A stretch of 64,000 nt of DNA from Bdellovibrionales bacterium (GCA_965203095.1 OZ241877.1:288001-352000), one strand, 5' to 3'; shown: positions 26,613-31,123, numbered from the stretch's first letter. Made by a program: numbers and translations. Notes: generated from the sequence alone by a model not told the origin.

Positions 26613-27083
26613 ATGAAAAATAATCAAGCAATGTTTTCATTTAAGATCGATGGGAAAGATTTTGAATTGCCTAAAGAAAAGGTGACTGCGAAACAAATTA
26701 TAGAACTTGCTAAAGAAAAAGGATTGCCAGAGGCAAATCTTCCTATTGAAGATCTGACATTAAAAAGCGGAAAAGATCTTTATTCAGGGAACGAAAATGT
26801 GGATTTATCAAAGGAAAATGTTTTCTCTCTGGAGCCAAAAAAGATATATAAATTTAAAGTCAACGGGCAAGAGATGGAATCCAAGGTTAAGAATCTGACT
26901 GCGAAACAAATTATAGAACTTGCTAAAGAAAAAGGAGCTACCCTCCCCGGTGACGAACAAAGCAATCTACTTGTAGAATCTGTGGGAAAACATCAGCGTC
27001 AATTTCAGCTGGAGGAAGAAGTTAATCTCAGCCAGTTTTGTGATTTTTTACTCATTTTGAATGAGCCAACTCCTGTTGCTTGA
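26613..27083 (+). CDS. ubiquitin-like protein with two multi-ubiquitin-type beta-grasp repeats
   Basis: Two repeats F.F.(I/V)(D/N)G....TAKQIIELAKEKG....V(D/N)LS...F; GGAGG SD; first gene of an E2/E1 operon; ends NEPTPVA. Confidence 0.75.
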   Translation: MKNNQAMFSFKIDGKDFELPKEKVTAKQIIELAKEKGLPEANLPIEDLTLKSGKDLYSGNENVDLSKENVFSLEPKKIYKFKVNGQEMESKVKNLTAKQIIELAKEKGATLPGDEQSNLLVESVGKHQRQFQLEEEVNLSQFCDFLLILNEPTPVA

Positions 27084-27120
27084 AAACAGGAAATTTTAAT
27101 CATATTGAGTCTGTATAAAA

Positions 27121-27507
27121 ATGTCTGCTTTGGAAAAAATAAAATGTGAATTAGAGGGCTTGAGCTATAGTCCCTTTTATATTGACACACCACAAGGTAA
27201 AACAGTGGTTATTAACTACCATGTATTGGTCGGCAAATATAAGGGAAAACAAATTCTCCTCGGATTTTCACTTCAGGAGGAAGGATATCCAGAATATCCT
27301 CCGCATTGGATCCATATCAGCCCACCTTATAATGATCAAAAGGGGGGAACCACACAAACTTACACCCATCCAGACAATAGGGGAGAAAACCAAGAATGGT
27401 TGGCCCTGAGTCGCCCTCCTCAAGATTTTTGGGATCAATTACCTACAAAACATATCAAACATTATTTGGATCTTCATATATCTCGTTTTTGTAAAGAATT
27501 AAAATGA
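27121..27507 (+). CDS. prokaryotic E2 (UBC-fold) protein with a predicted catalytic Ser
   Basis: YPEYPPHW motif, WLALSRPP..FW, C-terminal helix; ATGA overlap with the downstream E1. Confidence 0.7.
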   Translation: MSALEKIKCELEGLSYSPFYIDTPQGKTVVINYHVLVGKYKGKQILLGFSLQEEGYPEYPPHWIHISPPYNDQKGGTTQTYTHPDNRGENQEWLALSRPPQDFWDQLPTKHIKHYLDLHISRFCKELK

Positions 27508-29003
27508 GATATGAAGTTGCTTTTTGTGAAGAAGCCGAAAAACAGGCTCGTCAACATCTTTTATGGCATTTTCACAACGGCAATTTGCAAGAGGATCTTT
27601 GCTTTGCATTGTGGAGACCTGGCAAAGGGAAATCTCGCTATACAGGAATAATCTATAAAATAATTCTCCCAGAAAGAGACGATCGGACGCTCCATGGCAA
27701 TGTGGAGTTTGTTCCTCAATTCCTTTCCAGGGCAATCCATCAAGCTATAAGGGAAAAAGCAGGTTTGGCTTTTATGCACAGCCATCCAACAGATGGCTGG
27801 CAAGATATGAGCAAACCGGATGTGATTGCAGAAAGAGATGTGTTGTTCCCGCCCTCTATGGCCACCGGATTACCTCTATTGGGACTAACTATCGGAACAG
27901 ACGGTTGGTGGAGTGCTCGTTTTTGGAATAGAAAGAGAGGTAAAGCAAACCATCGTTGGTGTCAAAAAACAAGGGTTATTGGAAAAAATTTTTACAAAAT
28001 ATATTATAATGATCATATTCTATTGCCTCCCAAACGAAAAGTTTTTTTAAAAAGAACTTTTGACACTTGGGGAAAAAAGCATCAAAACAATATTGCACGA
28101 CTCAAAATAGGCATCGTGGGTCTGGGAAGTGTTGGCTCTATTGTTGCTGAAACTCTTGCCAGATTAGGAGTAAATAATATCGTTCTAATAGATCCAGATA
28201 AAATAAAAACTCACAATTTGGATCGCCTACTCTATGGCACAAAAAAACATATTGGCTGTTATAAGGTGGATGTGGCTAATCAGTTAATTAAAGAGCATTC
28301 AGTCGCTCATAAACTCAATATTGAGGCTCTTCCGTATTCTATACACCACGAAAAGGCATATTTTGCATCTTTAGACTGTGATTTTCTTTTCAGTTGTGTT
28401 GATCGACCTGTAGCGAGAGATGTTTTAAATTTCATCTCTTTTGCTCATTTAATCCCTGTTATTGACGGTGGGGTAAAAGTGACTTTAGACAAAAATGGGA
28501 ATTTTTACAGTTCTCACTGGCGGTCTCATCTTGTCACACCCTATCATCAATGTTTGCGTTGCAACAAACAATACACAACCAGTGGTGTCACGATGGAACT
28601 GGATGGCACATTGAATAATCCATCCTATATTCAAAATCTTCCCAAACCACTGAGATCTGAAAACCAAAATGTTTTCCCTTTCAGCTTGAGCGTTGCGGCA
28701 ATGGAGGTCAATCAAATGATTCGCTATATAATTTCCAGTGACTGGTGGCCAGAAGTCCAACAACAAGACTACCAATTTTTAACTGGATCAATTAAAATCA
28801 ATAATCAAAAATGCAGAAAGCATTGTGTTTTTCAGGAAGAAAGAATCGCAATGGGGGACAGATACAAGCCACATTATATTGTATCTACAAAAGGAGAAGG
28901 TTCAAAAGAAAAGAAATCTAAAATATTCAAGTTTATACCCTCTATAAACTGGATGATAAGCTTAATCACCAAACTTTTCGGTAAGGGATTTCGGAACAAG
29001 TAA
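27504..29003 (+). CDS. JAB/JAMM peptidase-ThiF (E1) fusion
   Basis: N-terminal E...HSHP.......S..D JAMM motif; GLGSVG, DPD, NLDR, CVD, CLRC...CRKHC. Confidence 0.88.
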   Translation: MRYEVAFCEEAEKQARQHLLWHFHNGNLQEDLCFALWRPGKGKSRYTGIIYKIILPERDDRTLHGNVEFVPQFLSRAIHQAIREKAGLAFMHSHPTDGWQDMSKPDVIAERDVLFPPSMATGLPLLGLTIGTDGWWSARFWNRKRGKANHRWCQKTRVIGKNFYKIYYNDHILLPPKRKVFLKRTFDTWGKKHQNNIARLKIGIVGLGSVGSIVAETLARLGVNNIVLIDPDKIKTHNLDRLLYGTKKHIGCYKVDVANQLIKEHSVAHKLNIEALPYSIHHEKAYFASLDCDFLFSCVDRPVARDVLNFISFAHLIPVIDGGVKVTLDKNGNFYSSHWRSHLVTPYHQCLRCNKQYTTSGVTMELDGTLNNPSYIQNLPKPLRSENQNVFPFSLSVAAMEVNQMIRYIISSDWWPEVQQQDYQFLTGSIKINNQKCRKHCVFQEERIAMGDRYKPHYIVSTKGEGSKEKKSKIFKFIPSINWMISLITKLFGKGFRNK

Positions 29004-29970
29004 ATTGAGGACCAATATATCCCGATTGCTTAGCAAGGTTTTTTAGATATTTGCGTAAACGACTGCTGTTCATAACTCTGGGTCCTATAGTAATTTTACT
29101 GCCACTTGTAAGGATCTTTTTAGAACTTAGTTGTTCATCAAAAATATATCTTCTTAAATAAGGAGGAGTATTCTTAAAGTCTTCTTTTATCTCCTCTGAA
29201 TCTGAAGAAGTTTTTATAAACCGATATTCTTTTTCATATTCATATCCTTTATGCTTATAAAGAAATTTTATTTTATCAAATGCTTTCCAAAATCGTAATG
29301 CAAAATATTTTTTATCTGTATCTGAGGAAAACTGAGAATGCAATAAACCTCCTAATTCAAAATAATCTTTAAAGTAAGCTATTAGATGCTCAAAATCATC
29401 TTCGTATAATACAGGATCCAGTTTTTCAAGCAAATCAGTCTTTTGAGAAAGTTGAAGGGAACAGCCCAAACCATCCTTTCCATAAGACTGCCAGTATGTG
29501 ATTTTATCTCCAATATTAGAATCCTCTCCGGAAACAAAGGAGCAGACAAAAGCGTCAGTATCTTGTCCAGAATCTTTCAACCAAGGATAATTTTTAATCA
29601 AATTATCTTTTAAATAATTTCCTTCACTGGGATCATTTGAGTAAGATGCATCAGACAATCTAAGGCCACTCATCTGTTGTTCAATTTGAGGTTTTAGTAT
29701 AGAATAAATGGTTTCCATACTTGTATAGTGAGCTAAATAAATTTCAGAGGTCATTTTATCTGATACATTTTTACTTATACTTTTTTTATAATAATTCTTT
29801 ACTTCTGATTTTAGAATTATTGATAAAATGTCTATAAATTCTTTAAATTTTTCATGCTCAGCATATTTAAGCATTTCATTTAATTTATTTGTTTGTTCCC
29901 TTGATTCCTTTTGAGAACATTGCTTAATTATTTTTTGTATTAACTTATTTATTTTTGATTGAGTATCCAT
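28966..29970 (-). CDS. DUF2971-like protein
   Basis: HYTS, SNDPSEG, FVCSF, WQSYG..G.G, K...YEYEKEYR. Confidence 0.75.
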   Translation of the reverse strand: MDTQSKINKLIQKIIKQCSQKESREQTNKLNEMLKYAEHEKFKEFIDILSIILKSEVKNYYKKSISKNVSDKMTSEIYLAHYTSMETIYSILKPQIEQQMSGLRLSDASYSNDPSEGNYLKDNLIKNYPWLKDSGQDTDAFVCSFVSGEDSNIGDKITYWQSYGKDGLGCSLQLSQKTDLLEKLDPVLYEDDFEHLIAYFKDYFELGGLLHSQFSSDTDKKYFALRFWKAFDKIKFLYKHKGYEYEKEYRFIKTSSDSEEIKEDFKNTPPYLRRYIFDEQLSSKKILTSGSKITIGPRVMNSSRLRKYLKNLAKQSGYIGPQFTCSEIPYRKVW

Positions 29971-30076: not shown

Positions 30077-31123
30077 TTAAATAAACAATCTATTTTGGTA
30101 GTTTTTTAAATCATGGATTGTCTCTTCAGCAATTTCCGGTGCGATTTCATACCCCAGGCTGTTTCTTTGTAAATCCACAGCCGCCTTAACAGTGGTTCCA
30201 CTACCTAAGAAAGGATCCAAAACAACCTCGCTTATATAGGAAAAAGCTTTAATAATTCTATAGGGCAACTCATAGGGAAAAGGGGCAACATGAGAGCGAC
30301 GGTCCCCGCTTCCTTCTGGTTTCATCTTCCATACATCCGTATTCTTGACACTTAGCCAAAATTCCTTATCTAATTTGGAATCTTCTTTTTGTTGTTTTGT
30401 CAAATGGCTGTATTTATTAAATCCATTTTTTTCCGGTTTGTTAAATTCCAAAATGAACTCGTGCATATTGTTGATTAAAATTCCTCCCGGATAGGGATAA
30501 GTCCCAAAGTGGGCTTTCACTCCATTTGTTTTATGCCAAACAATATCTCTTTTAAAAACAAAGCCAATTTTCTCCATAATCTCTATTGTCTGTCCGGTTA
30601 AATTTAAAGTTTTAAATCCTTTACCTTCCCTTACCGGTAAATTCATTATATTTATAAAAGCCTTTCTCCCAGGTTGGAGAACTCTAAAAACCTCTTTCCA
30701 AACCTCTCCAATTTTTTCAAACCATTGATCGAGGTTATGAATATTGCCCAAATCGCCCCGGACAGGTTCTTTTGTATACATTTTGGCATTAAAATAGGGC
30801 GGGGAAGTGATCATCAAATGAACAGAGTTGTCTTTAAGATCCTTCATGCAGGTAGCGTCTTTTATATAAATTTTATGTAAAGAATTATTAAGTTTCAACA
30901 AGTTTTCTTTTTCAATCCTTTGCTTTTTTTCTTTCTTGATTTTAGGTCGATTTCTTTCATACTCTTTTAAGTCTTTCAGTTTAAATCTTTTCTGCCCGCT
31001 GGTGGAAAGCATGCTTTTAATTTGACTCTTTTTTACTAAGTTGTGCAGAGTTCTGACAGTAATTCCCAAATACTTTGCCGTCTCTATAGAAGACAAATAT
31101 TTTCTATCTTTATAATCGTTCAT
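30077..31123 (-). CDS. DNA amino-methyltransferase (probably m4C, beta order) with N-terminal excisionase/MerR-like HTH
   Basis: LSSIETAKYLGITVRTL...GQKRF HTH; TSPPY precedes VLDPFLGSGTT. Confidence 0.9.
   Translation of the reverse strand: MNDYKDRKYLSSIETAKYLGITVRTLHNLVKKSQIKSMLSTSGQKRFKLKDLKEYERNRPKIKKEKKQRIEKENLLKLNNSLHKIYIKDATCMKDLKDNSVHLMITSPPYFNAKMYTKEPVRGDLGNIHNLDQWFEKIGEVWKEVFRVLQPGRKAFINIMNLPVREGKGFKTLNLTGQTIEIMEKIGFVFKRDIVWHKTNGVKAHFGTYPYPGGILINNMHEFILEFNKPEKNGFNKYSHLTKQQKEDSKLDKEFWLSVKNTDVWKMKPEGSGDRRSHVAPFPYELPYRIIKAFSYISEVVLDPFLGSGTTVKAAVDLQRNSLGYEIAPEIAEETIHDLKNYQNRLFI

Follow-up and report, generated by a model that had tools for sequence, protein, structure and literature searches.

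C-terminal glycine is regarded as a requirement for activating ubiquitin-fold modifiers. An operon of a Bdellovibrionales bacterium raises the question of how a Ubl that ends in alanine can be used by the E1-like enzyme encoded beside it. The operon lies in a stretch of 64,000 nucleotides (GCA_965203095.1 OZ241877.1:288001-352000), here called the window, and a first-pass annotation had described it as a unit of Ubl, E2 and JAB-E1 genes in an island between grxD and pyrF. The three coupled plus-strand open reading frames are there as described, although a fourth conserved gene had been left outside the unit. The features are as follows.

26613..27083, plus strand: Ubl gene, BubA-like, two beta-grasp repeats, 156 amino acids (Multi_ubiq E 1.5e-9, 2 stretches)
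27066..27083, plus strand: conserved end of the Ubl, P-T-P-V-A, with its TGA stop; activation is predicted at Ala156 (homologue alignment)
27121..27507, plus strand: E2-like gene, BubB-like, 128 amino acids (best fold match Citrobacter BubB)
27504..29003, plus strand: JAB peptidase-E1 fusion gene, BubCD-like, 499 amino acids (ThiF 3e-31; BubCD 2e-16)
28131..28133, plus strand: Val210 in the P-loop of the E1 (GLGS-V-G), a candidate gatekeeper of the Ubl end (covariation, complex model)
28626..28628, plus strand: Tyr375, crossover-loop tyrosine, putative counterpart of BubCD Y370 (motif only)
28966..29970, minus strand: DUF2971-like gene, 334 amino acids, predicted ADP-ribosyltransferase (ART) fold (similarity, motifs, model)

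The start of the JAB-E1 gene overlaps the end of the E2 gene by ATGA, and the DUF2971-like gene is convergent with the E1 gene and overlaps its 3' end. A contig of sequencing run X1, which may be the source sample, spans 26907-27301 with 0 differences. A terminator-like hairpin (27071-27091, plus strand; a consensus match only) covers the stop codon of the Ubl gene, 5' of the E2 gene, and could bias expression towards the Ubl. Promoter-like sites did not exceed chance (14 found, 17 expected). In other loci a single JAB-E1 gene is preceded by additional Ubl-E2 pairs in tandem, or by additional Ubl genes (L010, L015, L054 and L018, L020, L024).

The island between grxD and pyrF has to be redrawn. 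Clean insertion of the operon between the two genes is unsupported, as they are about 72, 379 and 557 kb apart in the three same-genus genomes that hold both on one contig. What stands is the patchy distribution: the operon is found in 3 of 9 same-genus genomes, at sites apart from pyrF, and in none of the 21 relatives that are less close. Related operons at 79 genome loci, all metagenome-assembled records, span many phyla, and the operon therefore moves horizontally; none was found in the phage collection or in viral contigs. No NCBIfam or PADLOC model for the system of the operon scored above cut-off. DNA methylases, TIR, HNH and AAA proteins are among the neighbours of the genome loci, and HigA/RelE, ImmA/IrrE and Abi genes among those of the plasmid loci. 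Such a neighbourhood fits a defence role.

The alanine end of the Ubl

The window Ubl ends LILNEPTPVA-TGA and its last glycine is residue 125 of 156, in agreement with the first-pass annotation. A Ubl profile built minus the last eight residues was run on 91 sources, namely 79 genome loci (from the best 80 of 254 matches), 11 metagenome loci and the window; several of the loci are near-duplicates and many are close kin. It recovered 97 Ubl open reading frames in 90 of the 91 sources, including the window, the gene of L089 being truncated. At the mature position alanine is present in 90, serine in three, valine in three and glycine in none, and one frame is shifted. The annotation had reckoned with the outcome that all close homologues end in glycine, and what was found is the reverse; with 90 of 97 ends alanine and 0 glycine, the alanine end of the window copy is neither chance nor error.

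Seventy-seven of the alanine Ubls stop at this residue, 12 carry unrelated tails of 2-9 residues, and the Ubl of L012 continues into the E2. The tails and the E2 fusion diverge after the alanine, as expected if the JAB domain trims there. T76, V78 and A79 (alignment columns) are found in at least 90% of 78 Ubl rows, and the logo of homologue C-termini that had been proposed as a check gives T-[PQ]-V-Ala. At the level of sequence, it is supported that T-[PQ]-V-Ala is the tail of the family and that alanine is the mature end. The annotation had allowed for activation of alanine or of a trimmed valine or proline. Alanine is retained, because the logo, the extensions and the fusions all break after it, and the trimmed ends are not. 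Glycine directly follows the alanine in three open reading frames (L001, L061, L090).

A library-wide search of 1.84 billion representatives with a Ubl profile returned 227 matches, of which 150 were listed and 134 of those were scorable. Their end residues were alanine in 118, serine in nine, glycine in two and other residues in five, a count biased towards alanine because the search profile included the tail. Two further Ubl-E2 fusions, joined after alanine or serine, are among the matches listed. P0313 and P0305 are Ala-clade Ubls with a terminal glycine, which their sequences suggest are possible reversions. Judged by eye, the last residue stands ten positions past the final-strand phenylalanine in Gly-type, actinobacterial and haloarchaeal Ubls and eleven in the clade of the window. 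A sequence search of the Ubl against the PDB gave nothing useful, and profile comparison with the Ubl of a Gly-type operon was weak (probability 0.9).

The activating enzyme and the E2-like protein

The JAB-E1 fusion possesses a JAMM site (E30/H92/H94/D106), an ATP site, the crossover Tyr375 and a C-terminal amphipathic tail. E30, H92 and H94 are found in 90 of 91 JAB-E1 proteins, the remaining one being split, and D106, G206, G208, D230, R241, K254, D300, Y375 and N389 in 91 of 91, with cysteine in the crossover loop of 0 of 91. Among solved proteins, Citrobacter BubCD is the closest relative by sequence (E 2e-16), and matches of the PADLOC E1-E2 model are limited to the ThiF core.

Within the P-loop, G-x-G-[SG]-X-G, residue 210 tracks the last residue of the Ubl. 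The combinations of Ubl end and E1 residue 210 (n=109) are Ala/Val in 84, Ser/Val in nine, Gly/Thr in nine, Val/Gly in five and Ile/Gly in one; the one unassigned pair, L135, has Gly210 and a tail of ambiguous register. This count leaves out L062, L066, L081, L083, L084, L087 and L088 (identical E1s), L030 (frameshifted Ubl) and L089 (truncated), and its plasmid-locus labels were assigned by eye. The change from valine to glycine at 210 is found in two separate clades, once in L037/L040/L045, which nest in the Ala clade with support 100, and once in a group of haloarchaea with support 85. Kin are not independent, and the covariation amounts to approximately three independent events. Among 12 loci read after the rule had been fixed, 11 fit it (Gly/Thr seven, Ala/Val three, Ser/Val one). 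The remaining one, L159 (3-1130, turned to the operon strand), encodes a Ubl ending in M-P-V-Glu together with an ordinary Val210 E1; either it breaks the rule or the copy is damaged. It seems that the activating enzyme has been reshaped to fit the alanine end.

Co-folding of the Ubl with the E1, as the annotation had proposed, places the tail in the interface. The model contains an E1 dimer, ATP (its placement unscored) and the second Ubl repeat. It reached a complex score of 0.77 against 0.01 for the best control, on a mark that 116 of 157 solved pairs and 2 of 215 mismatched pairs reach; at least 87% of the contacts recur between runs and the partner pLDDT is at least 84. The pass may reflect memorisation by the model of the BubCD-BubA structure, which is already solved. 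The modelled interface would bring E1 residues 206, 208-211, 297-300, 322-330 and 387-389 against the last six residues of the Ubl, and Tyr375 is absent from the confident contacts.

The C-terminus of the E1 (28880-29003, plus strand) consists of a variable linker followed by an amphipathic basic segment. Of the 91 close homologues 76 have a tail of at least 25 amino acids, as do all 5 actinobacterial proteins, but none of the 9 Gly-type BubCD proteins does; the tail may substitute for the hydrophobic extension of BubE.

The E2-like protein has no Pfam match, and a sequence search against the PDB gave nothing useful. Among 48,161 chains its model (pLDDT 88) best matches Citrobacter BubB (9eav_D; Z 8.9, rmsd 3.9, 114 aligned), with eukaryotic E2s ranking after BubB; Foldseek found no match at E 0.001, with BubB second at E 0.038. 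S97 (codon 27409-27411), H62 and W104 are invariant in 99 of 99 E2s, and no column holds a conserved cysteine. The serine is part of a motif S97-R-P99, the proline of which is found in 97 of 99. Compared with Gly-type BubB, His335 is replaced by proline and His62 occupies the BubB Asp position, in a weak alignment (hhalign probability 2.6).

Relation to known systems and the fourth gene

According to the accessible parts of Ye et al. (PMC11601596), type I Bub comprises BubAB (or BubA and BubB), BubCD and BubE (PDB 9EA4, 9EAV, 9EAE), with cleavage after a conserved glycine and Tyr/Ser oxyester chemistry. As far as the accessible text of PMC13373217 goes, phage protection by Bub operons has not been demonstrated so far. 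The window operon shares with type I Bub the gene order Ubl-E2-JAB/E1, a Multi_ubiq Ubl, a JAB domain N-terminal to a ThiF-like E1 in one fusion, a crossover tyrosine (equivalent by motif only), an E2 serine in a BubB fold and the lack of a catalytic cysteine. The differences are as consistent. The Ubl of the window lineage ends in Ala, Ser, Val or Ile rather than Gly; the lineage lacks BubE and has the C-terminal amphipathic E1 tail; its E1 has a P-loop Val or Gly where Bub has Thr, and QNV in place of PAV; the window E2 has S-R-P and His62 where Bub has S-x-H and Asp, on the weak alignment; and an ART-like fourth gene stands beside window-type operons.

The lack of BubE extends beyond the window. 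PF20137 (BubE) has no match in the genome of the window, which is 90% complete. The BubE profile recovered every one of the 19 control loci, the nine Gly operons among them; the window gave no match, and neither did L001-L096, L100, L111, L115, L117 or L118. For 50 of the 79 genome loci the whole genome was searched as well, 49 genomes in all; 10 of these have a DUF6527 match, in no case within the operon loci. In the 12 held-out loci BubE stands beside 6 of 7 Gly loci and 0 of 5 others.

Plasmid records widen the range of ends: six actinobacterial operons end in Val-Ala; among haloarchaeal operons two end in Ser, two in Val, one in Ile and one, judged by register, in Ala; and a further nine operons have Gly at the equivalent register. 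Rhodococcus sp. WAY2 and Pseudarthrobacter plasmids are sources of such actinobacterial operons. Haloarchaeal plasmid Ubl-E2-JAB/E1 operons are annotated as hypothetical in L095, L096, L111, L115, L118, L135 and L136, and in some of them the Ubl carries a long N-terminal extension, acidic and helical. The E1 tree, a quick IQ-TREE run on 62 of the 109 proteins, midpoint-drawn and with long-branch warnings, separates the Gly/BubE operons from the non-Gly operons by a branch with SH-aLRT 99. Because the working appears to be Bub-like and the terminal glycine, BubE and S-x-H are lacking, we file the lineage as a sister branch of Bub.

A terminal alanine has a precedent. In the accessible portion of Jenson et al. 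(PMC10097602), the E1-like Cap2 of CBASS conjugates CD-NTases ending in Gly or Ala, so that E1-type activation of a terminal alanine is already known for CD-NTases. In the CBASS system of E. coli, conjugation was lost when the Gly was changed to Ser or Val and was weakened when it was changed to Ala (PMC10097602), and non-Gly ends are therefore costly elsewhere, at least in that system. Type II CBASS Cap2/Cap3 resembles the window system in its E1-like enzyme, possible Ala end and JAB peptidase; unlike the window system, its CD-NTase substrate is not a beta-grasp protein, its E2 and E1 are fused and it uses Cys thioesters. Membership was rejected: the E2 of the window is separate, no CD-NTase is among the five proteins scanned, and the PADLOC matches cover the ThiF core only. 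Bil type II (BilABCD) likewise has Ubl, E2, JAB and E1, and short tails trimmed by JAB. In the accessible text of Chambers et al. (10.1101/2023.09.26.559546), the glycine of BilA is universally conserved, and Bil type II further differs from the window system by its multidomain E1 (IAD-AAD-CYS), thioesters and stand-alone JAB. Membership of Bil type I or II was rejected as well, since the window E1 is a single adenylation domain fused to JAB with no loop cysteine. The annotation had proposed a new, divergent conjugation system. An alanine-ended Bub-type operon it is, but not a wholly new system, being a sister branch of Bub with an alanine precedent in Cap2. The cysteine-free Tyr/Ser chemistry and the lack of BubE had gone unremarked in the annotation.

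The fourth gene accompanies much of the lineage. A DUF2971-like orthologue directly follows the E1 gene in 62 of 79 genome loci, convergent in 51 and on the same strand in 11; in L058 the gene lies just outside the distance rule for adjacency. On the E1 tree the gene has switched direction four times or more, with adjacency kept. The subfamily occurs in 3 of 401 sampled genomes of one class, each time beside a JAB-E1 gene, all three already being among the loci; in the fetched sequence of the actinobacterial, haloarchaeal and Val-ended loci it did not turn up. In L028, L031, L034, L036 and L072 the ART gene is on the E1 strand and is followed closely by another copy of the E2 gene in inverted orientation, a layout that suggests inversion or duplication. 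In the window an HTH_17-fused N6/N4 DNA methyltransferase gene (30077-31123, minus strand) adjoins the DUF2971-like gene, and methylases are also found 3' of the E1 gene in L040, L055, L059, L060 and L062.

PF11185 scores the window protein at 20.2 bits against a curated cut-off of 22, with several orthologues above the cut-off, and the nearest Atlas clusters are DUF2971 at 0.96. Conserved motifs are H81-Y82-T83, S144-F and E246-x-E248-x-R250. For the model (pLDDT 92), Tpt1 reaches Z 8.8 and four entries for DarT lie at Z 7.1-7.7; these scores are moderate, and helical-bundle proteins are interspersed among the matches. Foldseek found no match at E 0.001 for the model, and its top row (E 0.28, far from significant) is an ART effector solved with ubiquitin. 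DUF2971 is described as an ART family in the accessible text of PMC12522546, and in that of PMC11381338 Aristaios, a DUF2971 member, is a single-gene anti-phage system. The fourth gene is like Aristaios and DarT in DUF2971 similarity, ExE motif and ART-like fold, and unlike Aristaios in that the latter is a single-gene system. It is probable that the fourth gene encodes an ADP-ribosylating defence enzyme that usually accompanies the operon. Action of the ART-like protein on the Ubl, as the top Foldseek row might suggest, would be a weak lead. No link between a DUF2971/Aristaios ART and Ubl operons was found in the accessible published literature.

How the system may work

We consider it likely that the operon belongs to a sister branch of type I Bub which lacks BubE and uses a C-terminal alanine to conjugate its Ubl. 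Gene content, conservation, folds and covariation are observed, and the chemical steps are drawn from Bub and from conservation. The JAB domain would cut after the alanine where the Ubl carries a tail or an E2 fusion; the window copy would need no trimming. The E1 would adenylate the alanine carboxylate, with valine in the P-loop pocket instead of the threonine of Gly-type BubCD. By analogy with Bub, the Ubl would then pass to Tyr375 of the E1 and to Ser97 of the E2 as oxyesters, and finally would be transferred to lysines of target proteins. The system most likely serves defence against phage or stress, together with an Aristaios/DarT-like ADP-ribosyltransferase in the sub-clade of the window.

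Other readings of the same genes must be weighed. The alanine end could be activated and then given to a lipid, a nucleic acid or a small molecule, or be consumed in the manner of ThiF/MccB, with no protein being tagged. We regard this as unlikely, although the conserved amphipathic E1 tail (76/91 against 0/9 in the Gly type) hints at membranes, no BubE deconjugase is present and the partner residues of the E2 are unlike those of BubB. The E2 fold and its serine are strictly kept, lysine conjugates are made by Bub, Bil and Cap2 alike in the accessible parts of their literature, and the Pfam matches of 79 downstream genes contain no sulfur-relay family. A Ubl that merely binds the E1 as inhibitor, scaffold or sensor, its alanine blocking adenylation, finds a parallel in the accessible text on unprocessed BilA of E. 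aridi, where the terminal Ala98 after Gly97 blocks the ATP site (10.1101/2023.09.26.559546). That alanine is one residue past the glycine position; here it is at the glycine position with no preceding glycine, the ATP-site, Tyr, Ser and JAB residues are conserved, and changes of the end go with changes of the pocket residue. Binding of this kind is accordingly improbable in our judgement.

Trimming by JAB further back, which would expose valine, proline, threonine or an upstream glycine, has little to recommend it. One sub-clade often has a glycine five residues before the end and some haloarchaeal tails have one two to four residues before it, but such a glycine is missing from the window Ubl and most of its clade, 77 of 97 open reading frames stop exactly after the alanine, and the extensions diverge there. 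No support was found for a degenerate or mis-sequenced copy of a Gly-type Bub; with 0 of 97 homologue ends glycine, the library-wide ends and the run X1 contig, it is ruled out to near certainty.

From conjugation through a terminal alanine a wider proposal can be made, which we put forward tentatively and with more doubt than confidence. A lineage across many bacterial phyla and the haloarchaea would be free of the terminal-glycine rule, with residue 210 as a size gatekeeper for Ala/Ser or Val/Ile ends. The resulting orthogonal codes would escape Gly-specific proteases, and in the clade of the window the Ubl would switch a DarT/Aristaios-like ART on or off within a four-gene defence module.

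The operon type itself was listed as 6e by Iyer et al. 2006 (PMC1779556, as far as its accessible text goes). No non-Gly branch is found in the accessible portions of Gong et al. or of Makarova and Koonin (PMC2948915). Table S1 of Ye et al. (PMC11601596), in its accessible part, holds only DUF6527-containing operons, 31 rows of which have separate Ubl and E2 genes, and the non-Gly branch was consequently excluded from the published Bub catalogue by construction. We found no publication on an alanine-ended beta-grasp modifier in a search that covered literature outside subscription and a small part of that table.

The natural series of Ubl and E1 pairs, with Gly, Ala, Ser, Val and Ile ends and a single-residue change in the E1, makes the glycine rule testable with few point mutants. 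The same series could be a source of orthogonal tagging tools, and the linked ART is a candidate effector in a family with an as yet unproven biological role.
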